NCBI GenBank assembly: GCA_965203355.1
Contig: OZ241889.1
Coordinates: 1,952,001 to 2,016,000, forward strand
Source of the DNA: Candidatus Latescibacterota bacterium
Lineage (GTDB): Bacteria; Latescibacterota; UBA2968; UBA8231
DNA length: 64,000 nucleotides
Reading direction: 5' to 3'
Positions 3,960-45,678 of this stretch are shown here, piece after piece. The stretch's first letter is position 1. Each line of letters begins with the position of its first letter. The translations under genes and the position numbers were made by a program. Under the pieces are notes generated by a model, which saw only the letters and a list, made by a program, of their open reading frames with translations, did no database searches and had not been told where the DNA came from.

Positions 3960-3960
3960 G

Positions 3961-4779
3961 TTAAGGGGCGACCGCGTAGTTTAGGCCCGTGAGCAGGTGC
4001 AATGCTTCTTTTGCGGCCTCGTGGTCGGGACCGGTGCGCTCGGCGAACATGCGCTCTAACGGCCCCACAGCCGTGGTGTCGCCGATGCGGCCGAGGGTGC
4101 GGGCACTCTCCACGCGGACCCAGAGGTTGTCGTCGGTCAAGGCGAGGCACAGCGCGTCGAGGGCGCGGTGCGTCCGGTGGTGTCCCAATAGCTGCGCGGC
4201 GACATAGCGCACGTTGGCGTCGCGGTCGCGCAGCGCGGCGAGGGCGGCGGCGGCGGCGTCTGAAGTCCACAGAAACTGAAGCGCGGCCAGGGCCTGCCGA
4301 CGCACCGCCGGGATGGTATCGGCCAAGGCGCGCACCAGTGCGGGCACGGCGGTGGTGTCGCGGAGATTGCCCAAGCTCCAAGCGGCCGCGCCGCGCACCT
4401 CGGGGGCCGAGTCGCGGGAGAGGACGCTGGCCAAGGTGGCGTGGAGGCGGGAATCGTCGAGCTGGCCGAGGGCGCGGACGGCCTGTTCGCGGACATGGCG
4501 ATTGTCGTTGCCGAGGAGCGATTTGAGGAAGGGGATGGCGCGTCGGTCGCCGATTTGGCCGAGGATTTGCGCGGCAATGTAGCGCAAGCTATCGCTGCCA
4601 GCGGCCGCGCGGTTCAGCAAAGGATCGACCGCCGCGCCGCCTATCTGCACCAAAGCGTGGCTGGCGTCGAGGCGAACTTGACGCCGGGCATCGGCGAGTT
4701 GGTCAATGTGGTATTCGGCTCGTTGGGCGGCGCAACTCAAAAGGCTGGCACAGAGGGTTGCTAGGGCGAGCTTGGGCAT
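3961..4779 (-). CDS. HEAT-repeat lipoprotein
   Basis: Lipobox LLSC; repeated VR..AA..LG.IGD..A.P.L PBS-lyase/HEAT motifs. Confidence 0.88.
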   Translation of the reverse strand: MPKLALATLCASLLSCAAQRAEYHIDQLADARRQVRLDASHALVQIGGAAVDPLLNRAAAGSDSLRYIAAQILGQIGDRRAIPFLKSLLGNDNRHVREQAVRALGQLDDSRLHATLASVLSRDSAPEVRGAAAWSLGNLRDTTAVPALVRALADTIPAVRRQALAALQFLWTSDAAAAALAALRDRDANVRYVAAQLLGHHRTHRALDALCLALTDDNLWVRVESARTLGRIGDTTAVGPLERMFAERTGPDHEAAKEALHLLTGLNYAVAP

Positions 4780-4790
4780 GGCGGCGGTTT

Positions 4791-4830
4791 AAGTGAAAGC
4801 AGGGGTCAAGCGTTAGACCGGACCCCTGCC
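4791..4830 (-). terminator. Possible intrinsic terminator or attenuator hairpin
   Basis: GCAGGGGTC (4799-4807) / GACCCCTGC (4821-4829) inverted repeat followed by TTTCACTT on the minus strand. Confidence 0.45.
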
Positions 4831-4856
4831 TTGGCGTTGGCTGTGCAACAAAAAGC

Positions 4857-6074
4857 CTAGTTGACCATCTGCATGAGGCGTTGGGTAATCGACCCTTCTT
4901 GGGTCAGGGCGTAGATGATGATGTTGACCGCTAGTTGGAGCTGACGGGTCGAGTCGCCGCCGCGTTGGTCGTTTTCCCAGCCCCAGCCCCCGGTGTCGCC
5001 GGGCGTGACGCTCGCCAGCCTACCTTTGATGTAATGGCCGCGCAGATAGTTCCAGGTCCTAACGCCTGATTTGCCCTGCCCTAGCGAGGGAGGATAGCCA
5101 AAAGGTACGCCGCCACTTAGATCGAAGAAGGAGGTGTAAACGGGGTGATTTTCCGGCAGGCGCTCGGACCAGAAGTCCTTGCCGCGGACTAGGCCACCGT
5201 ATTTTTCGAGGGCTTCCTCGTAGATCCCGTTGAACGTAAAACCGCCCGCCATTAAGTACTCGGCCAAGTTGGCCATTTCGGTGTCGTTGGGGGTGCCTTG
5301 GGGCTCGACGAGGACGGGTACTTCGAGCAGGCGCGGATCGTCAAACGTGATAAAGCCGAGGAATTCGGCCTTGAGGCCGGTGTACTCGTTGAGTACGTCG
5401 CGTAGCCGGTCGATGGTTTTGACGCGGAGCGTGACCGTGCCGTAGCCAGAGGTACCACCGGCCAGCGCGCGCGAGGACATGACTTGGGCCAGTTTGACAA
5501 ACCCCTTGATGGCCTGCTTGTCGGTGGCGTCTTGGACGATAATGGCGCGGTAGCGACCGGTGTCCATGTTGTCGACGTCGAGCATCTCCAAGCCCATGTC
5601 GATCTTGTGCTCGGAGGTGCGGGTGCTGGTCACGGCCGCGGCTGTCAACTTCGGCTCGATCGTCATACCGCTCGTCGCGCTGAAGGCGGATTGCCCGGAC
5701 AGGCGGATCCCGGATCCGCTGACGCCGGCGATTAGGCTGCGGGTGTTGAACGAGGCGGTGGCCTGCACTTGGTCCATGCGTGCTTGCGCTAGCTGGACTT
5801 CGCGGCGTGCGAGCTGGCGTTTGGGCTGGGGGATTTTGCGCAGCTCCAGTGGCTTGGTCAGCCGCGGCTCGCGCTTGATGAACTTGGTCGTCAGCGGTCG
5901 CGGCGTCTTTTTCTCGCCCTCTTGAAAGGGGTTGATCGCCACGACGATGAGCAGGAGGGCTGCCGCCGAGGCTAGGGCGATAACAAAGCCTCGGCGCAGG
6001 CGGCGAACTAGACTGTCGAGCTCAAAATCTTGCGTGGGCGAAGCAAAGCGCGTGGAGCCCCATTTCTCATTCAT
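4857..6074 (-). CDS. Single-TM protein with Pro/Lys-rich stalk and C-terminal DUF4159-like domain
   Basis: TM FVIALASAAALLLIVVAI; stalk KTPRPLTTKFIKREPRLTKPLELRKIPQPK; C-terminal NLAEYLMAGGF, LPENHPVYTSFFD, QLAVNIIIYALTQ typical of DUF4159. Confidence 0.75.
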   Translation of the reverse strand: MNEKWGSTRFASPTQDFELDSLVRRLRRGFVIALASAAALLLIVVAINPFQEGEKKTPRPLTTKFIKREPRLTKPLELRKIPQPKRQLARREVQLAQARMDQVQATASFNTRSLIAGVSGSGIRLSGQSAFSATSGMTIEPKLTAAAVTSTRTSEHKIDMGLEMLDVDNMDTGRYRAIIVQDATDKQAIKGFVKLAQVMSSRALAGGTSGYGTVTLRVKTIDRLRDVLNEYTGLKAEFLGFITFDDPRLLEVPVLVEPQGTPNDTEMANLAEYLMAGGFTFNGIYEEALEKYGGLVRGKDFWSERLPENHPVYTSFFDLSGGVPFGYPPSLGQGKSGVRTWNYLRGHYIKGRLASVTPGDTGGWGWENDQRGGDSTRQLQLAVNIIIYALTQEGSITQRLMQMVN

Positions 6075-6197: not shown

Positions 6198-7208
6198 TCA
6201 CAATGACTTCCTCGAAGGACGTTTGAGGGAAATAACTCGGTCTTGGATCTGTAGGCCCTCTCGGCGTTTTTTGAGCTTCTTATCGAGTTGGCGCAGCCGG
6301 GCGATGGCCGTGGTAGAATCCACGTCAACCACCTCTATTTGCCCGACTTTTTGCTGCGATGGCCTAGGGCGCCACACATCGAACCGCATGCGCTTTGTCA
6401 GCCCGTGCCAGGCCCCGATGTTTAGCTGGACGTGGGGTTTGCCTTTCCGTTTGGGTAAGACGGCTGCTATGCGGCCCTCTAGCGGCAAATTCGCGTCTAG
6501 GTCGGGTGCGAGATCGTCGGCCAACCCCTTTAACACGCCGCGGATAACGGTGAGATCGCTACTGGGATTCGAGATGAACCAACGCTCGGCGACGTTGAGT
6601 GCGCGTTCTGTGGCGGGATCGGCCATTTGCAAGCGGAGAAGATCGGCTAAAAAAACGCGCGTCAAACCAGGATGCGACGCGCCCGGATACTTCCAAGTAT
6701 TATAAATGAATAGGTGTTGGTCATAAGGTATCACGGCTGATGAGTCGCGCAAGTCCGACCAGAAGATTTTGTCTCGGTGCCGATCCTCCAGCTTGACTTC
6801 AAGTTGACAGACGATGGAAGGCAGGGAAATCACTTCATAGGAACGGTCTGCGCTCGGCCCGCTGTCGTCGAATAGGCCCGGATCCGCATGGTAGTGAATG
6901 ACTTGGTTGTGGTATGTTTTGTGGGCTTTGTTGAACGCGAAGTGAGCGATGTAGTCAATGGATTCTTGCCCCGTGCGGATGCTCGGCAAGCGCACGACGC
7001 GAAAGCGGCCTAAGTCGGCAAAAGCGTCTCCGATCGCGCGCTCGATTTCCAACATCAGGCGGGGATGCTGCTCGGCGAGGTGGACGGGCAGGATCGCTGG
7101 ATCGACGAGATTGGTAAAGACCAAGCCGATGGTGTAGATGTGCGGTTGGGCGTTGGTCGGCTGGCCGCCGAGTGCGAGGGCCACTCCAATGAGAAAGAGA
7201 GACTTCAC
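6198..7208 (-). CDS. Exported hypothetical protein with FlgT-C-like beta domain
   Basis: GTG start, signal peptide; C-terminus PLEGRI...VQLNIGAWHGL...FDV...KVGQIEVVDV...A.A...IQDRV resembles FlgT/CsgG-associated C-terminal domains. Confidence 0.6.
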   Translation of the reverse strand: MKSLFLIGVALALGGQPTNAQPHIYTIGLVFTNLVDPAILPVHLAEQHPRLMLEIERAIGDAFADLGRFRVVRLPSIRTGQESIDYIAHFAFNKAHKTYHNQVIHYHADPGLFDDSGPSADRSYEVISLPSIVCQLEVKLEDRHRDKIFWSDLRDSSAVIPYDQHLFIYNTWKYPGASHPGLTRVFLADLLRLQMADPATERALNVAERWFISNPSSDLTVIRGVLKGLADDLAPDLDANLPLEGRIAAVLPKRKGKPHVQLNIGAWHGLTKRMRFDVWRPRPSQQKVGQIEVVDVDSTTAIARLRQLDKKLKKRREGLQIQDRVISLKRPSRKSL

Positions 7209-7300
7209 GGGATTAAGTCATGTGCGATTGTTGCGAGAAATCGGTGTATTGTGTCTGCTTAATGATATAACTGGGGCGATCTCGCCGAGCAACTTTTTTC

Positions 7301-7330
7301 TTGACAGCCCTTTGACAGGGGTTTTATTAT
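7301..7330 (+). promoter_or_regulatory. Sigma70-type promoter for the 7384 gene
   Basis: TTGACA (7301-7306), N18, TATTAT (7325-7330); AGGAG RBS before ATG 7384. Confidence 0.65.
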
Positions 7331-7383
7331 CAGCCGTTCAGAGCAAATTGCTCGTCCACTTCTCAAGCTAAGGAGATGCAGTA

Positions 7384-8337
7384 ATGAAGAAGCTGACCCT
7401 TTTGGCTGCGATCGCAGCCTTTTGCGTTACGACGCTGGCCCACGCCCAGCCCCCCGTGCGCTACTTCGACCTGCCCAAGTTCACCCAAGCCCCCACGCTC
7501 GATGGCGACCGCATGACAGTCCCGGATGAGTGGGCTGGTGCGCTGGAATTTAACTGCTCGCCGAGCCAGATTCAGCAAGACGGCCAAGAGTTTGGCTGGC
7601 GCAATATCGAGCAGCAATCTAGCGAGGTAAGCACCAACCAGCTCAACGAAAACGGCGAGACCGAAGTCGCGGGTGAAGGCCGCACGGATGCCGATGTTTC
7701 TTCGATGATCTGGCAGGCATGGGACGATGACGCGCTGTACTACATCACCGAGGTTAGCGATAACGTCCGCGACACCGAGGGAGGTGGTGAGGCACATGCT
7801 TGGTGGGAGCGCGATAGCATGTCCCTGTATCTCGATATGAACAACGAGGATCACCCGGGTGGCGACCCCACCGGCGAGTACGTCAATCTGAATGTGGTCA
7901 ACTTCATGGCCGTGCCTTTTGGTGCAAACGATCTGTCCGTCTGCTACATCACCACCGTGCAGAATCAGCGCGTGAATGTCCACGATCCCGAAGCAATTGA
8001 GGGTTTTGAGTACGGTTTCCGCGATGCCGGCGACGAGTTTGGCGACGAAGGGGATGCCGACTACGTGATCGAGGGGCGGATGGAGTGGGACACCTTCTTG
8101 CGCAATGGCAATCTCTTTGAAGCCCCCACGGCTGGTTCTGAGATGGGCTTTACTTGGCTGTTGGTTGACCCGGATGGCGAAGACGCCTATGGCGGTCAGA
8201 TCCAGTGCGTGGCTTGGGCCGGCGGCAATCAGTCCGAATTTGCCAACTATGTCTTTGTGGACACACCGGCTGGTCCATCAGGCACCGCGGTCGAAGAAGA
8301 TTCTTGGGGCCGCGTAAAGGCGACCTTCGTTCAGTAG
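7384..8337 (+). CDS. Secreted CBM9/DOMON-like sugar-binding protein with C-terminal TAVE-SWGRVK motif
   Basis: Signal peptide; APTLDGD...EW, AWDDDALY...VSDN, WERDSMSLYLD, YVIEGRM.W, GFT.L.D.D match the CBM9-like pattern; very acidic; ends GTAVEEDSWGRVKATFVQ. Confidence 0.78.
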   Translation: MKKLTLLAAIAAFCVTTLAHAQPPVRYFDLPKFTQAPTLDGDRMTVPDEWAGALEFNCSPSQIQQDGQEFGWRNIEQQSSEVSTNQLNENGETEVAGEGRTDADVSSMIWQAWDDDALYYITEVSDNVRDTEGGGEAHAWWERDSMSLYLDMNNEDHPGGDPTGEYVNLNVVNFMAVPFGANDLSVCYITTVQNQRVNVHDPEAIEGFEYGFRDAGDEFGDEGDADYVIEGRMEWDTFLRNGNLFEAPTAGSEMGFTWLLVDPDGEDAYGGQIQCVAWAGGNQSEFANYVFVDTPAGPSGTAVEEDSWGRVKATFVQ

Positions 8338-34558: not shown

Positions 34559-34674
34559 AATTGCCCATTGATCGATGGACGGATAGCGGCCCTGGCAAAA
34601 AGCCCGCCGGTCTTATTGGGCTTTTACCCTATCTTGACAGCCGCTCGTCCCATTCCACAGACAAAGCGAATCTC

Positions 34675-37600
34675 ATGGCCAAACCCAAACTACTCAATGC
34701 GCTTTTCTTGCTGTTTGCCGCTGCCATGATTGCGGTCGTCGGCTTCGGCGATCCGGGCGCGGTCAATCGCGCGGTCAACGATTTCTTCGGCTGGGCACCC
34801 AACCCGCCCGTAGAGGCGCGGATGGTAGAACCCGCGCAAGCGGCCGCGCTGCGCGCCTTGGTCGCCGACATAGACGAAGCGGAGATTGCGGCTGAGATTG
34901 CGCGCTTTGCTGCTTTTGGCTCGCGCGTACCGGGGTATGCCGGGGAACGGCAGGCCCGCGACTACGTGCGCCAGCGGTTTGAGGCGCTGGGGCTGGAGGA
35001 CGTGCAGAGCGAGGCATTTAAGGTGGCCGTGCCCATTGATCGCGGCGGCGAGTTAGTGGTGCAAGGCGGCGACAGCAAGCGGCTCTACAGCCTGTGGCCC
35101 AACAGCGTACGCACGCCCTCGCTGGGGCCGGACGGCGTGCGCGGCCCCCTGATCTACGGCGGCCAAGGTGCGCTCGAAGCATTGGACGGCCAGCGCGTGG
35201 AGGGCAGCGTGGTGCTGTTGGATTTTGCCAGCGGCCAAAACTACCTCCATGCCGCATCGCTGGGCGCCAAGGCCATCGTCTTTTTCGACAACGGCGGCGT
35301 CAACCGCGAGCAGGCCGCGGACAAGTTCCTCAAGGTGCCGGTCGACATCCCGCGATTTTGGCTTGAGCGACAAGATGCGCTCGACTTGCTGGCGCGCTGG
35401 CGAGATGGGCCGGTTGCCGTCCACTTGAATGCTCGGATGGATTGGGAAGGGGTGGAGGCGCACAACGTGTATGGGTACCTGCCCGGATCGCCCGAGATGC
35501 TGCCGGCCAAGAGCCGCGAAAAGCCACAGGCGTGGCGCGATCAAACCATCGTCGTCCAAGCCTATTACGACGCGATCTCGGTGGTGCCGGCCCTCGCGCC
35601 CGGCGCGGAAAACGCGGCCGGGATCGTGGCCTTGCTCCAGCTAGTGGAACTGCTCAAAGCATATCGCCCGCACTACTCGGTGCTTTTTTTGGCGACCTCC
35701 GGGCACTTTGAGGGCCTGTCTGGGATCAACGATTTCCTCTACCGCCACAGCCGCCGCAGCGACTATTTCCGCGAACGCATGAGCGAAGCCGAGCGCATCG
35801 ACTTCGACCTGATGTTATCGCTGGATCTGTCGAGCCACGCCGCCGGTACGGTCAGCTTTGGCATGGGCACTTTTTACAATCCCAAGTGGCGCACCGACAA
35901 CTACATCAAATACATGTTGACGCCCTATTCCAAGCGGCTGAGCCTGGCGGTCGAAGAAACGTTTGGCGACACCACGCGCCACTACGAGGGCCTGGCCCCG
36001 CCCAAGCGCACGTGGAAAAACTTCATGCCCATTCCGCTCGCTTTTGCCAGCGAGGCCGCGGCTTTCGTCGGCCAGAAAGCCCTCGCCCTGGCCACGGCCA
36101 ACGACGCGCGCGAGCGGATCGACACGCCGCTCGATTTGCCAGAAGCCGTGGACGCGCAAAACCTCACTCGGCAGATCCAGACGCTGGGGGCCATGGTGGC
36201 GTGGGCTGGCCGAGACGCCGCGCTGCTCAAGCCGACCAAACTGGAGCTGGAGGACTACGGCCACAGTTTGGCAGGTGCGATCTATTGGTTTGACCGCGAC
36301 GTCAATTTTGCCGTGCCCAAAAAGCCCGTGCCGCAAGCCCTCGTGACCTATCAACAGCTCGGCCCGAACTCGGTCGGCGGGGTGCGCACCTTGATCGCCC
36401 AAGAGGCCGACGACGCGGGTCGCTTTCGCTTTGACATCATGCGCAACCGATTGAGCAACGCCATCCGCGCGTACGAACTCAGTCCCCACGGTGAAATCAT
36501 CTCGGCACCGGACCTGGGCCAAGAGGGCGACGAGACGTACCCGACTGTGCATCCGTGGGGCTGGTGGGAAAACGAGATGCTGCAAGTGCTCTTCAAATGC
36601 CGGGCACTGAGTTTGTTTGAGACGGTTGACTCGCGCTACCTGTCGGTTTTGGATCACGTGACCGTGCTCGACGAGCGCGACGGCGTGCCGCAGTCGTGGG
36701 GAGCCGACTTTGTCGAAAGGCAGAGCCATGAGGAGAGCAAGGTAACGCTCGCGGCGGTGGTGTACGCCCAGCCCGGCACTCAGGTCAAAGCGCTGATGAG
36801 TACGAGCCTCTTCGGCGTGCGCTACCTGCTGAGCGGTGCGCCCGCCGCCTGGGTGGCTGATCCGGTGCGCCCAGCCGACGTGGATGCGGCGACGATGAAG
36901 CAAGCGCTCGGGCGCGGCTATCCCGTGGATCGAGGGGTGGTGCTGCGTCCTGGGTATGCGGCCGCGCGCGACATGTGGGTCCTCGACGACGTGCGGATCA
37001 AGCAGTTGGCGCGCTACGGGGTGCGCAACGACAAGTTCATGCGTCTGCACGAAGAGGCGCGCTTGGCCCTGTTGGAGGCCGAAGAGCACTTGCAGGCGCG
37101 GCGCTACAGCGAGTTCAAGCGGGCCACGCGCAAGGCGTGGGGCCTTGAAGGGCGGGGCTACCCAGACATCAAATCGACGGCGGACGACACGGTCTATGGG
37201 GTCATTTTCTACTTCGCGCTGCTACTGCCGTTTTCGTTTTGCTGCGAGCGGTTGTTTTTCGGCTTTGCCGACATTCGCCGTCAGGTGGCCGGCGCGGCGT
37301 TTTTCTTTTTGGCGATTTTCCTCATCATGCGCGTCATCCATCCGGCCTTTAAGCTGAGTTCGTCGCCGTACATCATCTTTTTGGCCTTTGTCATCTTTGC
37401 GATTGGCGGCACGGCCTTGCTGATGATCTTAGGTCGCTTTACCCGCGCTGTCGGCCAGCGCAAGCGGGCGGCGGCGGGCGTCCACGAAGCGGACATCGGT
37501 CGTCTCAGCGCCACGGCCGCGGCCGCGTCGTTGGGCATTTCCAATCTCCGCAAGCGCAAGCTGCGCACCGCGCTGACGGTCGTCACGCTGACGCTGTTGA

Positions 37601-39282
37601 CCTTTACGGCTCAAGCCTTCACCTCGGTGCAGAGCTATCTCAAGTTCTATCAGATCCCCCGCCCGAATGCGCCCAGCTACGAGGGGGCTCTGCTGCGCGA
37701 CCGGGGCTGGAAGGGCTTGCAGCTATCGGTGCTCGACTACGCGAAAAGCGCGTTTGGCAACCAAGCGCAGGTGCTGCCGAGGTCGTGGATTACTTCCAAG
37801 GTCATTGGCGAGCGGGCCTATATCGACATTGAACGCGAGCCAACGCAGAAGAAGAGTTTTGCCTCGGCGCTGCTCGGGGTGACGCCGGGCGAGGGGGCGC
37901 TGATGGGGCTGGAAGGGCTGTTGGTGGGGCCGGCGAGCCGCTGGTTTGCGGCAGATGAGCGCGACGTGTGTATCCTGCCGGTGGCTATGGCGGCGATCTT
38001 GGGCATTGGCCCGGCCGATGTGGGCACGGCCCAGATTGGGCTGATGGGACGGTCTTATCGAGTCATTGGCTTAATCGACGGCGAAGTCATCGACGGCCTG
38101 CGCGACTTGGACAACGAAAGCCCGATGCCGGTGGATACGGTCGCCGAGGCCAAGAAGATGGAGCAAATGGCCGACTTAGATCCGCGCCTGATGGACACGG
38201 CTGCGATTGAGACCTTTACCCATCTGCTGGCCAACAACGTGGCGTTTTTGCCCTACCAGCAGGTCGTCGATTTGGGCGGTACGCTGCGCTCCATTGCCAT
38301 CGCGGGCTTTGCCGATCGGGAGACCTTGCTCGCCGCGGTGGAGGAGTTTGTGTCGCGGGTGGCGGTGCCGCTTTTTGTCGGGGCCGACGACCGCGTGCGG
38401 GTGTACACGTCTATGGGATCGGCGTCCTTAGCCGGGATTGGCAATCTCTTTGTGCCCTTGTTGATTGCCTCGCTGATCGTGCTCAACACCATGCTCGGAG
38501 CCGTGTACGAGCGCGCTGGCGAGATCGGCGTGTACTCGTCGGTGGGGCTGGCCCCGAGCCACATTGCCGCGCTCTTCATCGCCGAGGCCCTCGTGTTTGC
38601 CATTGTCGGCGCGGTGTTGGGCTATTTGGTCGGGCAGACGACGACGCTGCTGCTGGCGCACTACGCGCTCTTGGGCGGGATGTTTCTCAATTACTCGTCG
38701 TTGTCGGCGATTTTCTCGACCTTGGTGGTGATGGTGGTAGTGGTGCTCTCGACCTTGTATCCAGCGCGCAAGGCCGCCAACATGGCCGTGCCCGACGTGA
38801 CGCGGCGCTGGGAGTTCCCGCCGCCCGATGGCGACGACTGGTGCTTTGATTTTCCCTTTACGCTGGGTAAGGGCGATGCCTTAGGCTCGTGCGCGTACCT
38901 GCATCGAGTTTTCTCGTCGTATGGCGAGGGATCGGTGGGCGACTTTATGACCGAGGGCGTGGATTTTCACTTGGAGCAGGGCGGCGCGCAGCCGGTCTAT
39001 CGGCTGGAACTGATGGTGTGGCTGGCGCCCTACGATTTGGGCGTGAGTCAGCGGGTGTGCTTGCGCACCTTGCCGACCGACGACATGCCGGGCATTTACC
39101 GCATTGAGATGCACTTGCAGCGCGTCAGCGGCGATGTGGTGAGCTGGCAGCGGCTCAATACCAGCTTCCTCAATGTGCTGCGCAAGCGCTTCTTGGTCTG
39201 GCGGACGATTGCGCCCGAGGTGCGGGAGGAATACTTGGCGGCGGGTGAGAAGTTGGCGGCGGGGATGGGGGTGGCGGTTTAG
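34675..39282 (+). CDS. Fusion of PA + degenerate M28-peptidase-like ectodomain with FtsX/MacB-like permease
   Basis: N-terminal TM; GSRVPGY.G, PA-like insert, AYYD...APGAE; later TM bundle, GISNLRKRKLRTALT, and VYERAGEIGVYSSVGLAP.HI..LF.AE (FtsX-type motif). Confidence 0.82.
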   Translation: MAKPKLLNALFLLFAAAMIAVVGFGDPGAVNRAVNDFFGWAPNPPVEARMVEPAQAAALRALVADIDEAEIAAEIARFAAFGSRVPGYAGERQARDYVRQRFEALGLEDVQSEAFKVAVPIDRGGELVVQGGDSKRLYSLWPNSVRTPSLGPDGVRGPLIYGGQGALEALDGQRVEGSVVLLDFASGQNYLHAASLGAKAIVFFDNGGVNREQAADKFLKVPVDIPRFWLERQDALDLLARWRDGPVAVHLNARMDWEGVEAHNVYGYLPGSPEMLPAKSREKPQAWRDQTIVVQAYYDAISVVPALAPGAENAAGIVALLQLVELLKAYRPHYSVLFLATSGHFEGLSGINDFLYRHSRRSDYFRERMSEAERIDFDLMLSLDLSSHAAGTVSFGMGTFYNPKWRTDNYIKYMLTPYSKRLSLAVEETFGDTTRHYEGLAPPKRTWKNFMPIPLAFASEAAAFVGQKALALATANDARERIDTPLDLPEAVDAQNLTRQIQTLGAMVAWAGRDAALLKPTKLELEDYGHSLAGAIYWFDRDVNFAVPKKPVPQALVTYQQLGPNSVGGVRTLIAQEADDAGRFRFDIMRNRLSNAIRAYELSPHGEIISAPDLGQEGDETYPTVHPWGWWENEMLQVLFKCRALSLFETVDSRYLSVLDHVTVLDERDGVPQSWGADFVERQSHEESKVTLAAVVYAQPGTQVKALMSTSLFGVRYLLSGAPAAWVADPVRPADVDAATMKQALGRGYPVDRGVVLRPGYAAARDMWVLDDVRIKQLARYGVRNDKFMRLHEEARLALLEAEEHLQARRYSEFKRATRKAWGLEGRGYPDIKSTADDTVYGVIFYFALLLPFSFCCERLFFGFADIRRQVAGAAFFFLAIFLIMRVIHPAFKLSSSPYIIFLAFVIFAIGGTALLMILGRFTRAVGQRKRAAAGVHEADIGRLSATAAAASLGISNLRKRKLRTALTVVTLTLLTFTAQAFTSVQSYLKFYQIPRPNAPSYEGALLRDRGWKGLQLSVLDYAKSAFGNQAQVLPRSWITSKVIGERAYIDIEREPTQKKSFASALLGVTPGEGALMGLEGLLVGPASRWFAADERDVCILPVAMAAILGIGPADVGTAQIGLMGRSYRVIGLIDGEVIDGLRDLDNESPMPVDTVAEAKKMEQMADLDPRLMDTAAIETFTHLLANNVAFLPYQQVVDLGGTLRSIAIAGFADRETLLAAVEEFVSRVAVPLFVGADDRVRVYTSMGSASLAGIGNLFVPLLIASLIVLNTMLGAVYERAGEIGVYSSVGLAPSHIAALFIAEALVFAIVGAVLGYLVGQTTTLLLAHYALLGGMFLNYSSLSAIFSTLVVMVVVVLSTLYPARKAANMAVPDVTRRWEFPPPDGDDWCFDFPFTLGKGDALGSCAYLHRVFSSYGEGSVGDFMTEGVDFHLEQGGAQPVYRLELMVWLAPYDLGVSQRVCLRTLPTDDMPGIYRIEMHLQRVSGDVVSWQRLNTSFLNVLRKRFLVWRTIAPEVREEYLAAGEKLAAGMGVAV

Positions 39283-39312: not shown

Positions 39313-39747
39313 TCATTCCTCTTTTACAGTGCCCAATTGTACCGCTGGGTTCTCGGTTTTTTCTTTTGCGGCGGCGGTAGCGAGTTTTTGGTCGAAGGTC
39401 GCCAGCTTGGCCTTGCGGCGGATGGCTGTTTCTAAGTAGCTAGCATCGTATATAGTTAGGTCATGGCGTTGTGCAAGCTCCAAAACCGCCGTTTCGTCGT
39501 GTTCGTCGTCCACAGTGAACGAGAAATCTTGGGTAAGTTGAAGCAAGCAATCATTCAGGTCGCTTTGTTTGATTCGCCCCCTTTTCATCGCCATCAGTAG
39601 GACGTTGCGTACCTCATACCAGAAAATAGCTGGCGTCATACAGTCTCCGGCAGGTAAATTTTTCACTATTTCTTTGGCCGATTGATTGTGCTCTTCGTCT
39701 TTCAACAGAGCGGCAATCATCACTGATGCGTCGAGCACGGTAAGCAT
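39313..39747 (-). CDS. vapC: PIN-domain (VapC-like) ribonuclease toxin
   Basis: MLTVLDASV, YEVRNVL, LTIYDASYL, LATFDQKL with the acidic tetrad intact; ATG overlaps the res stop (TGATG at 39749-39745). Confidence 0.92.
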   Translation of the reverse strand: MLTVLDASVMIAALLKDEEHNQSAKEIVKNLPAGDCMTPAIFWYEVRNVLLMAMKRGRIKQSDLNDCLLQLTQDFSFTVDDEHDETAVLELAQRHDLTIYDASYLETAIRRKAKLATFDQKLATAAAKEKTENPAVQLGTVKEE

Positions 39748-42590
39748 CAGCGTCTCCCCTCGTCTCTCCAAGCCCGTATCTCATCCTGTGTTACGGGATC
39801 CATTCTTCTGAGTCGCTCATTGGCAACCTTGAACGCTTGCGCCATGACTAGTTCTTGCAGCGTCGGGTGATGGTCCGAAAATTCTGACTGATTGATGCGC
39901 GTGTATTTCCAAGGCTTTCCAGTGATTTCGCTTACGCGTTTGCACCAGTCCCGTGCGGCGGCGTCCTTTTCGACAGTGCCTTCCCATACTCGGCCTTTGG
40001 TTTCGAGGATCCAATGCACTAGACCGTCCCGCGCCTTCTGCACAGCGATCCAGTCAGGATAGTAGAAGCCGATGGCCCCACTGGGCTTTAGGTAATCGAT
40101 GCGGAACACGGTTCCAGATGCGCCCTGTTCTGTCGTTCCAAGCGCGGCAAAGCTAAGGATGTCTTGGGCTTTGTCGAGGAATTCGGCAAAGCTGCGCTCA
40201 AAGGCGTTGTACGTGGCCACGAAGTTGAAGATGGTCTTTTTTGCTTCCAATGGCGGCAAGTTGCGCCGCCAGCTAAAGGCTTTTGTCAGGGATAGAAGAG
40301 CATTCTCATGCTCAAGTTCGACAGTACGCCGCTCAATGGTAAGCGTAGCGACCTCGCGGGCGATGTATTTGGCAATGCCCTCCTGCAATTCTAGTCGGGC
40401 CAGATGAGAGCGGACGGTTTCATCGGTCAGTTCGATTTTTCGCCCAAAACAACGGTTCACGACGTAGTCTTGCACAATCGGATACATCTCCGCAAAGCGG
40501 TTGGTCAGCTTAGCACGGTCAGCGGCTTTGTTGGCGATGCTCGCCAGAAGTTCTTGGGCGGGACGTGGCTCAACAGCAATGTCGGTTTGATGGACCTCGG
40601 TCTCCGTGGTAGTAAATTCCATCTTCAGACTGATTCGGAATGGTTCGGCTAGTTCTTCTTGATTGAAAATCGCTTCAAGCGAACACACATCCAAGGTGGA
40701 CAGCTTGCGGAAATTATGCTTTAGGTTCGGCTTGGTTATAGGCAGGGCAATGTCGTATTGAAGCCGTTCTTGCATGGGTTTGACGACGACTGGACGCGGC
40801 GGATTTTCCTTCGTGTCCATCACGCCAACGCCCTCGGCTTCGAGTTGTTCGCGCAGGACTTTGAGCAGGTTGCGCGTACCAAGTACCTCAAGCGTCTGCG
40901 TTTGGTCTGGGCTTACCTGTGCCATCAGGCGCAGGCCACGCCCGATCACCTGCTCCGGGAGTATTTCGGCTTTCGCGGTGAAAGGTCGCAGCCCAAGCAC
41001 AACCGTCACGTTGCGGACGTCCCAGCCTTCGCGCAGCATCATTACACTGACAATCGCCTTGATCTTGCTCGTGGCCTTGTCGATGTCTCGCGCTGCTTGT
41101 CGGGCTTTGTCAAGGTCTCCTTGCCGAACTTCTCCGGTATTGTCCGTGTGGATAACGAGTACCTCGGATTCCTTGAAGCCGAATGCCGGTGTTGTCCACA
41201 GGTATTTTCCCAAGGCGTCCGCATAGACATTTTTCTCGGCCATGATAAAGAGCACCGGCCTCGTGTTGAGCTGTTTGTAAACTGTCCAGTGTTCCTGCCA
41301 GCGTTGCACGGCAGCCTGCAACCAGTAGCTATACTTCTCTGCCACGTTTTCTTTTGTAATCCCGGCCGGATCTTCGTTTGGCTGATTCGGGTCGTCCGCC
41401 TTGGTTACGATGAGTGGTGCTTTGACGATTTTATCTTCTACGGCTTGGGCTAACGGGTAGTCCACGACCGTCCATGGGAAGTACATGCCGTTCTGGTCTT
41501 TTGGCGTGGCCGAAAAGTCGAGCCAAGCGCAGAGACCTTGCGGCAGCGTTTTGTGAATGGCTAATAATGATTTATTCCAAGCCAAGTCGTCTTGGTGGAC
41601 GTGATGCGCTTCGTCATTTAGCACGACGAGATCCTGCAAAGACTTCACACGCTCTAGCATGGAACGCTGGCTGGATGATGCGAGGTCTTTTTCGGGCTTC
41701 CGGCCTAAAAGGGCATCAACGGCGTTTGCCAGTATCCTCTCCTCGTCGCGAGATTCGTAGAGTTGGTGGATGTTGGAGAGGAACAAGTTCCCGGAGGGGG
41801 CCGGTTCGGGCGTCTCGCCGCGCAAGATCACCTTTTGCGCGAAGTGGCCTTTCCACTCAGGTGGAATCAGGGGCAACTCGTGGAATATGCGATTGTTGGC
41901 AAAGTCCTTTTCTAGCCGCTGATAGACGATCACGTTGGGGGCTACGATGAGAAAATTGGTGGAGAGTTCCGAGCCGGGGACGCGCTGCTTGTGGAAGCGG
42001 GACCAGACGATGGCCATGGCCATCACCCAAGTTTTACCCGAACCAGTGGCCATTTTGAAGGCGAAGCGGCGCAGGTTTTCGGGTGGAAGGTCCTGTTCGC
42101 CATCTCGGTTTAGTTCCGGCACATAACGGCGAATTTGCCGCTGACCGTTCATCGTGGTCTGAAATTCGATATTACTTGAGAATAAGTCTTTCTGAGTGAT
42201 TTTTCCGTATGTCTCGATGAGGGCCTTGACATCTCGCTGATTGGCGATCTCTACCAGCCACACCAGCGTCTCAATCGCTTCGCGTTGGCAAAAGTAATAG
42301 CGGAACGGCGCGTTAAATCCGCTGATTTCGTGGTCCTCGTCAAACCAATACTCAAACAAGCGGCGAGTGACTTCGGATGCACCTGTATAGTCACTGTCGC
42401 GCCAAGCATCTACTTTGTCGCGGATTTTCGGCACCAATAGGATATTGCTCGGGCGTCGGCCGGATGTATCCTCGCGCCAGCCGGAAGGTACGGCAGCATC
42501 TTTGACCAAGTGGGACGTGGGTCTTTCCCACGGACAGCGATCGCGGATTTCCGGCAGGTCCTGGTCGTAATTAATGACGGCTTGTGCCAT
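39747..42590 (-). CDS. res: Type III restriction Res subunit (SF2 helicase + nuclease) with extra C-terminal tail
   Basis: YFCQREAIET, MATGSGKT (Walker A), DEAHH, FSATP, MLREGWDV, QVIGRGLR, PDW...ILETKG (PD-ExK nuclease). Confidence 0.92.
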   Translation of the reverse strand: MAQAVINYDQDLPEIRDRCPWERPTSHLVKDAAVPSGWREDTSGRRPSNILLVPKIRDKVDAWRDSDYTGASEVTRRLFEYWFDEDHEISGFNAPFRYYFCQREAIETLVWLVEIANQRDVKALIETYGKITQKDLFSSNIEFQTTMNGQRQIRRYVPELNRDGEQDLPPENLRRFAFKMATGSGKTWVMAMAIVWSRFHKQRVPGSELSTNFLIVAPNVIVYQRLEKDFANNRIFHELPLIPPEWKGHFAQKVILRGETPEPAPSGNLFLSNIHQLYESRDEERILANAVDALLGRKPEKDLASSSQRSMLERVKSLQDLVVLNDEAHHVHQDDLAWNKSLLAIHKTLPQGLCAWLDFSATPKDQNGMYFPWTVVDYPLAQAVEDKIVKAPLIVTKADDPNQPNEDPAGITKENVAEKYSYWLQAAVQRWQEHWTVYKQLNTRPVLFIMAEKNVYADALGKYLWTTPAFGFKESEVLVIHTDNTGEVRQGDLDKARQAARDIDKATSKIKAIVSVMMLREGWDVRNVTVVLGLRPFTAKAEILPEQVIGRGLRLMAQVSPDQTQTLEVLGTRNLLKVLREQLEAEGVGVMDTKENPPRPVVVKPMQERLQYDIALPITKPNLKHNFRKLSTLDVCSLEAIFNQEELAEPFRISLKMEFTTTETEVHQTDIAVEPRPAQELLASIANKAADRAKLTNRFAEMYPIVQDYVVNRCFGRKIELTDETVRSHLARLELQEGIAKYIAREVATLTIERRTVELEHENALLSLTKAFSWRRNLPPLEAKKTIFNFVATYNAFERSFAEFLDKAQDILSFAALGTTEQGASGTVFRIDYLKPSGAIGFYYPDWIAVQKARDGLVHWILETKGRVWEGTVEKDAAARDWCKRVSEITGKPWKYTRINQSEFSDHHPTLQELVMAQAFKVANERLRRMDPVTQDEIRAWRDEGRR

Positions 42591-42591
42591 G

Positions 42592-44442
42592 CTATTTCAC
42601 CTCCACGTCAAGAGCTTGCGAGGTATCGTTGCCGAAGATGTCGATTACCTTGACTAGCACTCGGTATTTGCCAGGTTGCCCGTATGTGTGGGGATCGGAA
42701 GCGAGCAGGAGGGTGCGGTTTTTGCGGGTGCGGTAGGAGACCCAGCCCTGCATGAAGGTGTCGTTTTGAAAGTCCCAGTCAACGGCCCAGTAGTCGATGT
42801 AGTCGGACCACTTCGCAACTTTGTCGCGCACTTCGTCGGGGATGAGTTCCGAGTTGGGGATGACGAAGTTTTGCAGTTTCACTTGCGCGGTGAGTTTCTG
42901 CGGTTTTTTGACCGTTGCCTTTAGATAAGCCAGCTCGAAGAAGCGGACATCGCCTTTAGCGGTCGCCTGTTCTTCCATGACTTCGCGGGGGATTTGCAAC
43001 AGCGAAAGGTTGACGCCTTTGTTTTTTGCTGCTGGCACCACGAGGTTTTGTAAGCCCATTTCCCATTCCCAGCCGAGGATATGCAGGTCTTTTTGCTTGA
43101 GCTTGGTGCATTCTTCCACGGCGTTGTCGATTTCGTCTAAGGTCACAGGCGCGTCTACTGCGCCGATGTGGATTAAGGCGCGGCCTTTTTTGCCGTGTAG
43201 ATGCGCTAGGCCCGAAAGCGGCTGTGCGCCGTAGAGTTTGAGGATGAAGGCGAGGTATTCGTAGAGTGCTTGCTCGGATGGCGGCTGATTTGCGTTACCA
43301 AACGTCACACCTTGCCAGTACTGGCGCTCGTATTTGCCGAGATTGAGAATCTCGAAGGGCTTGCAGTTTTCAATGCCGAGCAGACGCTTGCGGGTGACGT
43401 GGATGCCCCAGCGACCCAAGTCGCAGCCGATCCAGCGGCGGCCTAGTTTTTCGGCGACGGCGAGCGTGGTGCCAGAGCCGCAGAAGAAGTCGGCGACGAT
43501 ATCATTCGGGTTAGAGCATGTTTCGATGATTCTGCGAAGTAGAGCCTCTGGTTTCTGCGTTGGATAACCCGTTCTTTCGTTTCCAACGCCCGCGATGATG
43601 GAGATGTCCCATACGTCTCGAAGGGGTAGTCCTTTAGTAGGTTCATCAATTGTGATTTTTCTTGTTCTTGTTTCTGGATCAAGAATCTGCGTTTTCCCCC
43701 CGAATCTCTTTTCGTAGCTCTCCGATACATCTTCATATTGCTTATGGAATCGGTGCTCCTGATGTTTAGAGGTTTTGCGATAAAACAGTATATCGTCGTG
43801 CATTTTCTGAAATACTGATTGAGTACCTGGCCATCTCTTATAGCTCCATATTATATGGTTGCAGAATTGGCTTGAGCCCATGATCTCGTCCATTATTTGA
43901 CGAACCGTGGCCGATGTCGTTGAGTCCAAGTGAACAAACATTGAGCCATGTGGTGCAAGTAGTTCTCTCATTATCATAACGCGAGAAGAAATCATGCTGA
44001 AAAATGAAGAAAGTCCTTTTCCCCACGTATCCCTGTACGCCTTTTCTTCAATTATAGATTGTTCCTTTGGAATTTTTTCATTTGACTCTCCAATCTGAGC
44101 CATAAACGAAAAATCCGCTCCTGTCGCAAAAGGCGGGTCTATGTAGATCAGGTCAATTTTCCCAGCGAATTTTTCTAGCAACGAACTCATCACCAGCAGG
44201 TTGTCGCCCCAAACGAGCTTGTTCTTCCAGCCATCTTCAAAGGTGTCGCCTTCATTACCTTCGTACATGTCGAATAGTGACAATCCTTTAGTTTTTTGTA
44301 CCTCGCGCGTGGCGCGGCTTTCATTGACCGTCTCAATCACTTGAAAAGGCAGATTAACTCGCGGAACCTCCCTGAGTGTACCATCCTCGTCGTACTTGCC
44401 GGGCCATACTAGTTCCGTCTTGGTGATGTCGATTTTTGCCAT
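42592..44442 (-). CDS. mod: Type III Mod, beta-class adenine methyltransferase
   Basis: WGDNL, IYIDPPF (motif IV), YPTQKPEALL, DFFCGSGTT (motif I), C-terminal VKVIDIFGND; AAGGAG RBS; 1 bp from res. Confidence 0.94.
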   Translation of the reverse strand: MAKIDITKTELVWPGKYDEDGTLREVPRVNLPFQVIETVNESRATREVQKTKGLSLFDMYEGNEGDTFEDGWKNKLVWGDNLLVMSSLLEKFAGKIDLIYIDPPFATGADFSFMAQIGESNEKIPKEQSIIEEKAYRDTWGKGLSSFFSMISSRVMIMRELLAPHGSMFVHLDSTTSATVRQIMDEIMGSSQFCNHIIWSYKRWPGTQSVFQKMHDDILFYRKTSKHQEHRFHKQYEDVSESYEKRFGGKTQILDPETRTRKITIDEPTKGLPLRDVWDISIIAGVGNERTGYPTQKPEALLRRIIETCSNPNDIVADFFCGSGTTLAVAEKLGRRWIGCDLGRWGIHVTRKRLLGIENCKPFEILNLGKYERQYWQGVTFGNANQPPSEQALYEYLAFILKLYGAQPLSGLAHLHGKKGRALIHIGAVDAPVTLDEIDNAVEECTKLKQKDLHILGWEWEMGLQNLVVPAAKNKGVNLSLLQIPREVMEEQATAKGDVRFFELAYLKATVKKPQKLTAQVKLQNFVIPNSELIPDEVRDKVAKWSDYIDYWAVDWDFQNDTFMQGWVSYRTRKNRTLLLASDPHTYGQPGKYRVLVKVIDIFGNDTSQALDVEVK

Positions 44443-44549: not shown

Positions 44550-45239
44550 TCATAATAGCCCGGCCTTGCTAAAACTGAAAGTCTGCGACTCCGACACGAT
44601 CAGGTGGTCGGCAACCCGCAAGCCAATGGTTTCGGCGGCGAGCACGATAGCACGCGTGACCAGTTTGTCTTGCTCGCTCGGCTCGACGTTGCCGTTTGGA
44701 TGGTTATGCGCGAGTACAAGGGCCGCCGCTTGGCGTTTGAGCGCGGCTTCTACGACGCGGCGTGGATACACCGCTGCGCGATCAATTGTACCTTCCTGAA
44801 GCATTTCGACGCCATTGTGAAGTAGCCGATATGCCGAGTCGAGGTACGCCACGGCAAATACTTCGTGCTTGAGGTGGCCGATCTGCATACGCCAGAAGTT
44901 ACTGATCCGCTCCGGGTCACTCAGCACTTCCGCTTCTTCTGATACTTCCTGCAAGTAGCGCGTCGCCGCTCCGCGGATGACCTTTAGGGAGATCGCGGTG
45001 ACCTCGCCGATACCCTTGACTGACCGCAATTCGGCTAGGGGCGCGTCCAAAATCCCTCGCAGACTGCCGAAGCGATTGAGCAGGGCCTTGGCTTGTTGCT
45101 TCACGTCCGAGCGAGGGATGGCCAAGGTCAATAGCAATTCAACGACCTCGTGTTCGGCGAATCCGTCAAAGCCGCTCTTGAGGAAGCGATCGCGGAGCCG
45201 CTTGCGGTGCCCGTGGTAGTGCGGTTCAATCTTCGCCAT
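44550..45239 (-). CDS. radC: RadC/JAB-domain protein
   Basis: GHRKRLR, HhH VKGIG, EVF, VYPR, AHNHPNG..EPSEQD, DHLIV. Confidence 0.93.
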   Translation of the reverse strand: MAKIEPHYHGHRKRLRDRFLKSGFDGFAEHEVVELLLTLAIPRSDVKQQAKALLNRFGSLRGILDAPLAELRSVKGIGEVTAISLKVIRGAATRYLQEVSEEAEVLSDPERISNFWRMQIGHLKHEVFAVAYLDSAYRLLHNGVEMLQEGTIDRAAVYPRRVVEAALKRQAAALVLAHNHPNGNVEPSEQDKLVTRAIVLAAETIGLRVADHLIVSESQTFSFSKAGLL

Positions 45240-45678
45240 TATCCTGCTCTTTAGATTTGTTCAAACATTCGCGCCCGGCTGTCGTCAGGCGATAGCGTTG
45301 CTTGCTGCTGCGCGGCTTGTCGGGAATCGTCATTTCGATTAGACCGGCTTGCAGGGCGGGGAGCAGGTAGGTTGCTCGGAAATGATCCTCGTGCTTCAAG
45401 TTGAGAGCGTCTTGGATTTGTCGTCTGCTCATTTCGCCTGACATTACATCTAGCAGACGCACTTCCCCGGTAACTTCCCCGGTAACTTCCCCGGTAACTT
45501 TCCCGGTAACTTGATCTTCTAGTTCCCGCACTTCGGGATCCGGCCGAAAAATAACGACGAAAAATGCTCCCCGGACCTTGAATTCCGGTTCTGGGCAACC
45601 TTGTTCCCGCGCTTCGTCCCGAATACGGCGGATGCCAGTGCCTTGCTGGATGAGCATATCAAGATCCGCAGATTTCAT
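45226..45678 (-). pseudogene. Probably internally deleted AlbA_2/HATPase-wHTH regulator remnant (still an open frame)
   Basis: MKSADLDMLIQQG (AlbA_2-like start) joined to TGIRRI...PEPEF (end of HATPase_c_4-like domain), VTGE repeats, and C-terminal YLLPAL..GLIEMTIPDKPRSSKQRYRLT wHTH. Confidence 0.6.
45461..45512. repeat. 12-bp tandem repeat, about 4.3 copies (ACTTCCCCGGTA)
   Basis: Three perfect units, one with a single mismatch, one partial; encodes VTGK/VTGE on the minus strand. Confidence 0.92.

Follow-up and report, generated by a model that had tools for sequence, protein, structure and literature searches.

A VapB-like tail on a Type III-like restriction subunit encoded in overlap with a VapC-like toxin gene: a putative antitoxin within a restriction enzyme

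Genes and features at the locus

The DNA considered here is a stretch of 64,000 nucleotides (nt) from a Candidatus Latescibacterota bacterium (GenBank assembly GCA_965203355.1, contig OZ241889.1, positions 1,952,001 to 2,016,000 of the forward strand). The whole stretch is called the window, and all coordinates without a locus name refer to it. Its minus strand carries three genes that form one tight operon with no spacers: mod, which encodes a Type III DNA methyltransferase; res, which encodes a Type III-like restriction subunit; and a vapC-like gene for a toxin with a PIN domain. Res ends in a tail that resembles the C terminus of VapB antitoxins, and a preliminary description of this DNA had proposed that the restriction enzyme itself is the antitoxin of the VapC protein.

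The mod gene (42592 to 44442) encodes a protein of 616 amino acids with matches to Pfam N6_N4_Mtase (E value, 2.5e-48) and PADLOC MTase_III (8.4e-126, profile positions 17 to 613 of 616). The ATG of res lies 1 nt past the mod stop codon. The res gene (39747 to 42590 including the stop codon) encodes 947 amino acids comprising an SF2 helicase, a C-terminal PD-ExK nuclease, and the VapB-like tail, and its product matched Pfam ResIII (7.1e-18) and PADLOC REase_III (1.4e-16). By gene content, the system is of Type III, with a Mod methyltransferase and, encoded directly after mod, a Res with helicase and PD-(D/E)xK nuclease. Biochemically, Type III systems are characterized by hemimethylation through Mod and by an ATP-dependent cleavage for which two unmethylated sites in inverse orientation are required. 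A mod homologue was also found directly upstream of res in the related loci L001, L030, L039, and L002 to L006 (our numbering, see below). Among the NCBIfam equivalogs, BPTD_3080 matched Res with an E value of 4.6e-89 but below the cut-off (299.6 versus 800 bits), the best-scoring matched stretch stopping at residue 900, and PRK15483 reached only 14.6 of 564 bits. The Walker A residues G183, K186, and T187, the D326-E327-A328-H329 box, and the nuclease residues P845-D846...E863-T864-K865 do not vary among 30 Res relatives, and Res therefore appears to be an active enzyme.

The PIN gene (39313 to 39747) encodes a protein of 144 amino acids that is assigned to Pfam PIN (3.5e-18; 66.8 bits versus a cut-off of 23.6) and reaches only 19.4 of the 73.6 bits required by NCBIfam TIGR00028. 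Its acidic residues, described earlier as intact, are indeed all present: D6, E45, D101, and D119 are invariant in 54 aligned relatives. The AlphaFold2 model of the protein (predicted local distance difference test [pLDDT], 92) has a VapC-like fold. The best Foldseek match of the model was PAE0151 (E value, 1.3e-8; template modeling [TM] scores, 0.69/0.76), followed by PAE2754 and then by Mycobacterium tuberculosis VapBC26 (5x3t), FitB, and VapC20, with TM scores of ~0.65 to 0.76.

The C terminus of Res reads ...WKYTRINQSEFSDHHPTLQELVMAQAFKVANERLRRMDPVTQDEIRAWRDEGRR before the stop codon. As the preliminary description had stated, the res TGA (39749 to 39747) overlaps the ATG of the PIN gene (39747 to 39745); the two have one base in common, and the junction reads TGATG (39745 to 39749, minus strand). 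The same description held that no separate antitoxin open reading frame (ORF) lies by the toxin gene, and none was identified at the locus: Res lies directly upstream of the PIN protein, only short antisense ORFs overlap the genes, and a mere 30 nt separate the PIN stop codon from the end of the convergent gene at 39282.

Homology of the Res tail to VapB C termini

The tail had been described as a continuation of about 44 residues after the nuclease sequence NQSEF. Such an extension exists, and it comprises 43 residues, of which about 15 are the ordinary end of the nuclease domain; the relatives without a tail also extend 10 to 25 amino acids beyond the NQxEF motif. A comparison of Res homologues, named in the preliminary description as a way to see where these proteins normally end, placed the usual terminus 54 to 69 amino acids past the ETKG motif, versus 85 amino acids in the Res of the window. 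The truly added piece is thus about 25 to 30 amino acids long and corresponds, according to hhalign, to residues 918 to 947 (QAFKVANERLRRMDPVTQDEIRAWRDEGRR; 39750 to 39839, minus strand). Its core motif occupies residues 932 to 947 (PVTQDEIRAWRDEGRR; 39750 to 39797, minus strand), and E937, G945, and R946 are invariant in the 30 Res relatives. The AlphaFold2 model of the whole Res, which shows helices at residues 911 to 929 and 935 to 943, was poor and unusable (mean pLDDT, 55.9; 30-row alignment).

Stand-alone antitoxins with the same ending emerged from metagenome contigs when these were scanned for a DNA pattern based on aligned tails. The scan yielded eight loci, one with Res, tail, and PIN gene (L083) and seven with a stand-alone antitoxin (L084 to L090). 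The small proteins of the latter are 79 to 80 amino acids long, start with MSVTVKVAEAKTHLS..., and end in ...QP(T/V)TQ(E/D)EIRAW(R/I)(D/E)EGRR(Y). Behind each lies a PIN gene starting with M(S/A)F(V/I)(L/V)DAS, which overlaps the antitoxin gene or closely abuts it (L088 to L090). The three small proteins that were scanned (L084, L085, and L088) scored above the Pfam cut-off for PhdYeFM_antitox, and the sole downstream gene scanned, that of L084, was a PIN gene according to Pfam. The ending ...I..W.(D/E)EGRR that had been given for antitoxins of this kind is therefore real in stand-alone Phd/YefM-type antitoxins encoded ahead of V(L/I)DAS PIN toxins.

The tail of Res and the end of the L084 PhdYeFM antitoxin are identical in 14 of the 16 terminal residues (BLASTP E value, 1e-9), and the PIN protein of the window is 39% identical to that of L084 (5e-26). 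In an hhalign comparison of Res C termini with 40 stand-alone antitoxins, which had been chosen by the presence of the motif, the last 30 columns aligned with a probability of 96.85% and an E value of 2.1e-10, both C termini matching end to end. The TGATG junction also occurs between res and the PIN gene at L001 and L083 and between the stand-alone antitoxin gene and the PIN gene at L084, L085, and L086. The codons of the core motif differ synonymously between the loci.

When a profile built from four antitoxin sequences was compared with 1.84 billion representatives, 6690 proteins were retrieved at an E value of ≤0.001. With two regular expressions of our own making, one strict and one broad, the C-terminal motif was identified in 54 (strict) or 102 (strict or broad) of the best 150 of these 6690 stand-alone antitoxin representatives. 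The same expressions matched 115 (strict) or 119 (strict or broad) of 120 Res relatives and none of 120 control PIN proteins. Variants of the Res tail that end in ...EGRA or ...EGRRWK or have A or F replacing W are also seen in stand-alone antitoxins. The top match of the antitoxin profile, P0249 (3428 amino acids), showed 25 separate matches to profile positions 2 to 35, which represent the N-terminal Phd-like segment; this protein may consist of repeats, or the match may be artefactual.

The homology of the tail to the C-terminal module of Phd/YefM-type VapB proteins is well supported by these sequence comparisons, in agreement with the VapB-like character first assigned to it. The N-terminal Phd/YefM DNA-binding and dimerization domain (PF02604), present in the stand-alone relatives, was tested for and is absent from both the whole Res and its last 54 amino acids. 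Res thus falls outside the VapB family, of which it carries only the C-terminal module. Nor is it a small autoregulating antitoxin, as the carrier of the module is a 947-amino-acid enzyme without a DNA-binding domain.

Because the C-terminal part of VapB and Phd antitoxins is their toxin-binding, inhibitory part, we regard the tail as a putative toxin-binding element. This assignment also draws on PMC13373217, whose passages on VapB state that VapB C termini block the VapC active site and that many VapB proteins place a conserved arginine in it. The invariant G945-R946 pair of the Res tail fits such an insertion of an arginine into the VapC active site.

Conservation of the tail and its co-occurrence with PIN genes

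A search with Res residues 780 to 947 retained 963 of 1446 candidates at an E value of ≤0.001. All of the best 120 of these 963 relatives carry the tail and are 60 to 100% identical to the query over its length, in a ranking that favours tailed proteins since the query included the tail. Tailed Res proteins fall into at least 114 clusters of at least 900 amino acids, in which the amino acids are conserved while the codons change synonymously. The members of this group form more than 100 clusters at 90% identity and come for the most part from uncultured bacteria of soil and water.

The corresponding PIN search gave 617 matches, of which 120 were listed, with a break after ~43 close ones (at least 52% identity). 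Judged by eye, 14 of the 50 best Res clusters, including that of the window itself, have a longest contig of exactly the same length as the longest contig of one of the 43 best PIN clusters; examples of such shared sizes are 18550, 19042, 4862218, 3773739, and 2632991. Further size matches between Res and PIN contigs involve the contig of L001 (3813436), that of L083 (81973), and a member of cluster P0016 (55729).

In a DNA-level scan that covered one genome per species, at least 590 stretches matched and at least 579 of them were confirmed as Res relatives; 80 loci were kept. PIN genes were sought in these loci among all ORFs of at least 40 amino acids with a hidden Markov model (HMM) of the subfamily (E value of ≤0.01) and were identified in L001, L030, and L039 only. 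The same three loci are the only ones with a long-tailed Res, so that a PIN gene accompanies three of three long-tailed proteins versus none of the 77 others, ~7 of which have less than ~320 nt of sequence after res. The window and L083 are two more loci with both tail and PIN gene. The co-occurrence of the tail and vapC, which the preliminary description had named as a check, is thus seen in these loci. In the closest relatives without a tail, L002 to L006 (60 to 74% identity), Res ends soon after the nuclease domain and the PIN gene is absent. Similarly, when 33 ORFs immediately following tail-less res genes were searched with Pfam, the 25 families listed out of 35 did not include PIN.

The closest relative among the matches of the DNA-level scan, L001, belongs to a Gemmatimonadota metagenome-assembled genome, and the Res family as a whole is scattered over many phyla. 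In the phylum of G001, one of 33 genomes scanned gave a match, which was a locus already counted. A scan of plasmids returned two distant matches, both tail-less, and a scan of viral contigs with three tail alignments returned nothing.

The tailed proteins do not all belong together. A quick FastTree phylogeny with midpoint rooting was constructed from 55 Res proteins, comprising one in three of the 114 listed relatives of at least 900 amino acids and 17 proteins from the loci. In this tree the tailed Res proteins group in a single clade of 39 rows (support, 86), with the tail-less L004, L005, L002, L003, and L006 as successive outgroups. The Res proteins of L030 and L039, both from Actinomycetota, are 33 to 34% identical to that of the window and fall into a distant clade beside the tail-less L029 and L020. 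They extend ~45 to 50 amino acids beyond the usual end, and their tails finish in ...EEISRLRDDPRG or ...EAEVRRLREDPRA, with an RLR(D/E)DPR ending. Their PIN genes begin 8 nt ahead of the res stop codon and match Pfam PIN (3.9e-13 and 1.3e-6); the two products are 51% identical to each other and distant from the PIN protein of the window (HMM E values, 8.5e-6 and 1.5e-4). Since L030 and L039 occupy a separate position among tail-less sisters, the tree suggests that the architecture of tail plus PIN gene arose at least twice, long branches meeting deep in this midpoint-rooted tree. In the order of G002, the Res end of this second clade was identified in 2 of 401 genomes, at the locus of G002 itself and at L093, which has neither tail nor PIN gene. 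The PIN protein of the second clade was found in 3 of the 401 genomes, including the two new loci L096 and L097, where these stand-alone PIN relatives are accompanied by a ribbon-helix-helix-like antitoxin with an end that does not clearly resemble the clade 2 tail.

Two trivial origins of the fusion were rejected. The deletion that might accidentally have joined res to a vapB remnant, offered in the preliminary description as an alternative, would be a one-off event and is ruled out by the conservation of the tail and its co-occurrence with the PIN gene. A sequencing frameshift is likewise ruled out, because the same junction occurs in independent loci. In the data reached, we encountered none of the observations named beforehand as contradicting the proposal, such as the same tail on Res proteins without an adjacent PIN gene.

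Predicted complex of the tail and the PIN protein

Structure prediction for the PIN protein together with Res residues 893 to 947, a comparison that had been suggested for the tail and VapC, gave an interface score (ipSAE) of 0.56 (runs, 0.56, 0.58, and 0.53), versus 0.00 for the best of three controls. The runs agreed in at least 90% of contacts, and the pLDDT of the partner was 66 to 67. In the calibration of the score, 58 of 80 solved complexes and 2 of 110 mismatched pairs reached the mark, and values at the mark but not above 0.60 were obtained for only 7 of the 80 solved complexes and for both mismatches that passed. The prediction gives weak support to a binding of the tail to the PIN protein; results of this class are wrong in more cases than not unless the pairing was already likely on other grounds. 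No close solved complex was identified by sequence: the PIN profile found only the apo PIN structures PAE0151 and PAE2754, and the antitoxin sequence found only the N-terminal domains of Phd, VapB46, and VapB5 among the solved structures. VapBC complexes in general have been solved, and a memory effect in the prediction is therefore possible.

Proposed mechanism and alternative explanations

We propose that Res itself probably holds VapC in check through its tail. In this model, the toxin-binding C-terminal module of a Phd/YefM-type VapB would have been grafted behind the nuclease domain of Res, which would take the place of the DNA-binding domain of the antitoxin. A ribosome finishing res would reinitiate at the overlapping ATG of the PIN gene, possibly aided by the Shine-Dalgarno-like sequence GAGGGGAG, which is formed ahead of the PIN start by the last codons of the core motif (GAG GGG AGA). 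The tail would then capture VapC and hold it in a latent state on the restriction complex. If Res or its tail were lost, degraded, or engaged, as by gene loss, host shut-off, proteolysis, or phage interference, VapC would become free and could cut RNA, and growth would stop. The restriction system would in this way gain a built-in second line of defence or an addiction function.

The translational coupling sets limits on how the toxin could be released. As VapC would be made beside the end of res, its synthesis would probably be no faster than that of the tail that captures it, and a premature stop in res would also lower the synthesis of VapC. Coupling that keeps Res at or above the level of VapC argues against a function in punishing res mutants, and release would need loss or blockage of the tail after both proteins had been made. 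Candidate routes are gene loss with subsequent dilution, host shut-off combined with a faster decay of the tail, proteolysis, and a phage factor acting on Res.

Res as the antitoxin is the best-supported reading of the locus, with a probability that we put at about 0.7, and we infer from it the neutralization and toxicity of VapC, its RNA target, the trigger, and the benefit. That the tail neutralizes VapC appears likely to the same degree. A number of points weigh against this reading. (i) Family libraries searched with the 54-amino-acid tail gave only DUF4936 in Pfam (E value, 0.074), with no match to PF02604, and nothing in NCBIfam, and a word-indexed search of small proteins (29 to 95 amino acids) with the same tail gave no candidate with three common 5-mers. 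(ii) The 40 antitoxins were chosen by the motif, and the ranking of the 120 Res relatives, made with a query that contained the tail, favours tailed proteins. (iii) The codons for EG (GAR GGN) necessarily spell a Shine-Dalgarno-like GARGG, so that part of the conservation could serve translation and not binding. (iv) The 70 more distant tailed clusters P0051 to P0120, with tails ending in ...MSREEVRQARDEGRA or ...HEEFLQWRDEGRR, showed no contig size match to any of the 120 PIN clusters listed. (v) The tails of the second clade gave an hhalign probability of 8.6% against the antitoxin profile and no Pfam match and are not demonstrably VapB-like. (vi) The structural support for a binding of the tail is confined to the weak class of the complex prediction. 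(vii) A folded 108-kDa enzyme is not obviously a labile antitoxin.

If the tail does neutralize VapC, two purposes come into question, and we rate them about equally likely. One is a guard of the kind known from PrrC-mediated abortive infection: Res would be a sensor-antitoxin, and the release of VapC would be a specific response to a phage that disables, degrades, or titrates Res or to the engagement of Res in futile restriction. We put this forward tentatively, as a reading that goes beyond the neutralization itself. The other is addiction only, in which the tail inhibits VapC and the captured VapBC pair stabilizes a mobile mod-res island without any sensing of phages or of anti-restriction. 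The operon lies in a low-GC island of ~6.4 kb between housekeeping genes (GC content of 0.45 to 0.56 across ~39.4 to 45.6 kb versus 0.61 to 0.67 in the flanks), and the spread of the Res family over many phyla is in keeping with a mobile selfish element. Toxin-antitoxin and restriction-modification systems are, moreover, both described as addiction modules in the relevant passages of PMC2701414 and PMC5499597. However, restriction-modification systems are already self-stabilizing, and a large enzyme in the place of a small labile antitoxin weakens the differential-stability logic of post-segregational killing. We regard addiction alone as less likely than not, and the data obtained here do not distinguish it from a guard.

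The tight operon, the strict co-occurrence of tail and PIN gene, and the intact catalytic residues would also suit a PIN protein that serves as an accessory nuclease, recruited by the tail and active on the complex, for example, on phage transcripts or DNA flaps. The tail is, however, homologous to the part of VapB that is the sole region left for toxin contact in the stand-alone systems, and the blocking of the active site by VapB C termini, as described in the VapB passages of PMC13373217, together with the invariant terminal G-R, fits inhibition, so that we consider this alternative improbable. Less credit still is given to two others. The preliminary description had noted that an internal ATG at 39845 (Met916) could give rise to a mini-antitoxin, and a second in-frame ATG is present at 39803 (Met930); full-length Res would then be irrelevant to the control of VapC. 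Such intragenic antitoxins have a precedent in Rpn proteins, for which they were reportedly described by Zhong et al. in 2023. As a general mechanism this found no support: Met916 was seen by eye in just 9 of the 120 listed relatives, all of them among the closest, many relatives have another residue in place of Met930 (VTVTTEEIL and VILSHEEF), the ...TTMSREE... group has its Met in another column, and neither ATG is preceded by a convincing Shine-Dalgarno sequence or has a promoter-like site close by. Initiation within res is thus very unlikely to be the source of the antitoxin. It is equally hard to believe that the tail is the inert relic of an old fusion, with VapC being non-toxic or otherwise controlled. 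The family libraries are indeed blind to the tail, but the amino acids are conserved under synonymous codon change in the at least 114 clusters mentioned above, tail and PIN are both missing from the closest tail-less relatives, and a second tailed clade with PIN exists.

Neighbouring genes and other features

The low-GC island also contains a RadC-like gene and a gene fragment. The former encodes a JAB domain protein (44550 to 45239, minus strand; Pfam RadC, 3.2e-36), lies just upstream of mod at the upstream edge of the island, and is listed here as a neighbour without implying membership in the system. RadC-like ORFs also adjoin the Res family in five of the loci examined (L008, L009, L010, L030, and L039), in two of which (L030 and L039) they follow directly after the PIN gene. 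The RadC-like gene overlaps a 150-amino-acid ORF (45226 to 45678, minus strand) that resembles a fragment, with Fic-like_C and the end of HATPase_c_4. On the other side, the convergent neighbour (34561 to 39282, plus strand) is an ORF of 1573 amino acids in which PA and M28 peptidase domains are joined to a C-terminal FtsX-like permease, an unusual fusion. No tRNA gene was identified in the 30- to 52-kb part of the window, and a scan for promoters and terminators gave no signal above chance, with 2 promoter-like sites in 6.8 kb versus 3.7 expected from shuffles.

The C terminus of Mod (42592 to 42800) contains a weak PKD-like segment (PKD_4; E value, 0.001, below the cut-off). Endings similar to that of Mod (...VKVIDI(F/L)GNDT...) are also present in ORFs of L031 and L035. 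In L002, L006, and L039, the mod homologue exists as two consecutive open frames, which could reflect a frameshift, phase variation, or an assembly error.

Other additions to the Res family

Several other members of the Res family have additional domains or genes at the same end. The Res proteins of L036, L038, L059, and L077 possess an extra C-terminal domain of ~220 to 300 amino acids with a conserved (F)RN(T/R)xIAHQE stretch and no Pfam match at an E value of ≤0.01. The stretch resembles the HEPN Rx4-6H motif; if the domain is HEPN, an RNase would be fused directly to Res in the same family. In L047, a gene on the plus strand (2614 to 4893) starts 12 nt past the stop codon of a tail-less res and encodes a 759-amino-acid AAA_13 protein (Pfam, 8.2e-131; the match was assigned to L047 from protein size and N-terminal sequence). 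AAA_13 is the ABC-ATPase family of PrrC and RloC, and the gene is another RNase-type addition to the same Res family. Directly after the tail-less res of L004 lies a gene for a nucleotidyltransferase with a weak DruA-like match (6846 to 7907), and tail-less res genes are also followed by genes for a Schlafen AlbA_2/HATPase_c_4 protein in L040 (3977 to 5638) and a YhcG/DUF1016 PD-ExK protein in L043 (6577 to 7566), the last two being assigned by ORF length only. The 3' side of res in this family appears to be a hotspot for accessory defence genes.

A link between restriction and a suicidal RNase is known chiefly from PrrC/EcoprrI and has been suggested for HEPN fusions, and little is known of how the restriction enzyme holds the toxin. 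Here, the putative holding device is legible in the sequence: it is a 30-residue antitoxin peptide whose type of partner is known, so that the idea can be put to a direct test. If Res is indeed a sensor-antitoxin, a guard of restriction would have been built through fusion of the enzyme to be guarded with an antitoxin peptide. The toxin-binding end of a type II antitoxin could then serve as a portable tag that puts a toxin under the control of an unrelated protein, which would bear on how defence systems are wired together. Searches for orphan toxins would also be affected, as genome annotation would label this VapC antitoxin-less.

Comparison with known systems

The tailed Res proteins are a sizeable group for which no description was found in the literature searched. 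No antitoxin-like tail attached to a restriction subunit came up in the full-text literature searched; related operons may be depicted in Supplementary Figure S7 of PMC5499597 and in Additional file 1 of PMC3710099.

Phd/YefM VapB-VapC pairs (L084 to L090 and P0250 to P0398) have the same terminal motif, ...(T/S)xEEIxxW(R/K)(D/E)EGR(R), at the extreme end of the upstream protein, a V(L/I)DAS PIN gene that overlaps by 1 nt in the same TGATG, and PIN proteins that are 39% identical. They differ in that a DNA-binding and dimerization domain of ~50 residues precedes the motif, whereas at the locus described here a 917-residue restriction enzyme stands in its place. With the DNA-binding domain absent, antitoxin autoregulation would be lost, and expression would follow the mod-res operon.

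In VapKSC, as described in the part of PMC13373217 devoted to this system, VapC is inhibited by the non-canonical VapS, which consists of a STAS domain and a C-terminal region needed for neutralization. The likeness lies in an inhibitor of VapC that is a different protein with a short C-terminal inhibitory region, and VapKSC has a role in phage defence (PMC13373217). In contrast to Res, VapS is small, dedicated, and regulated by a kinase; the carrier of the tail is an enzyme of another defence system.

PIN genes have also been reported in Type I restriction-modification operons, some of them without an antitoxin (Matelska et al. 2017, PMC5499597). According to the passages of that paper on these operons, the arrangements are not conserved and no direct interaction had been demonstrated; an antitoxin-like tail on a restriction subunit is not described there. 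HEPN RNase domains are fused to restriction endonuclease or helicase subunits and never to the methylase, and a PrrC-like release, with action upon failure of restriction, has been proposed for them (Anantharaman et al. 2013, PMC3710099, in its sections on restriction systems). They share with the present system an RNase toxin tied to the nuclease/helicase subunit. However, in those fusions the toxin domain itself is fused, whereas here it is the antitoxin peptide that is fused, and the toxin is separate and appears translationally coupled.

PrrC/EcoprrI offers the closest parallel in logic. There, an anticodon nuclease is kept latent by a Type Ic restriction enzyme and is released by the T4 Stp peptide, as outlined in the relevant passages of PMC3710099 and PMC12707154. 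In both cases, an RNase is encoded within a restriction-modification operon and would be held inactive by the restriction enzyme, which for Res and VapC is our proposal. The components are different: PrrC/EcoprrI combines an ABC-ATPase-HEPN protein with a Type Ic system, whereas here a PIN protein is combined with a Type III system and a recognizable antitoxin peptide is fused to Res. Because both the toxin and the type of restriction-modification differ, this is not a PrrC system. It would nevertheless work like both a VapB antitoxin and PrrC; judged from its sequence, the coupling of restriction-modification and toxin would be PrrC-like in its logic, with a guard function as our proposal.

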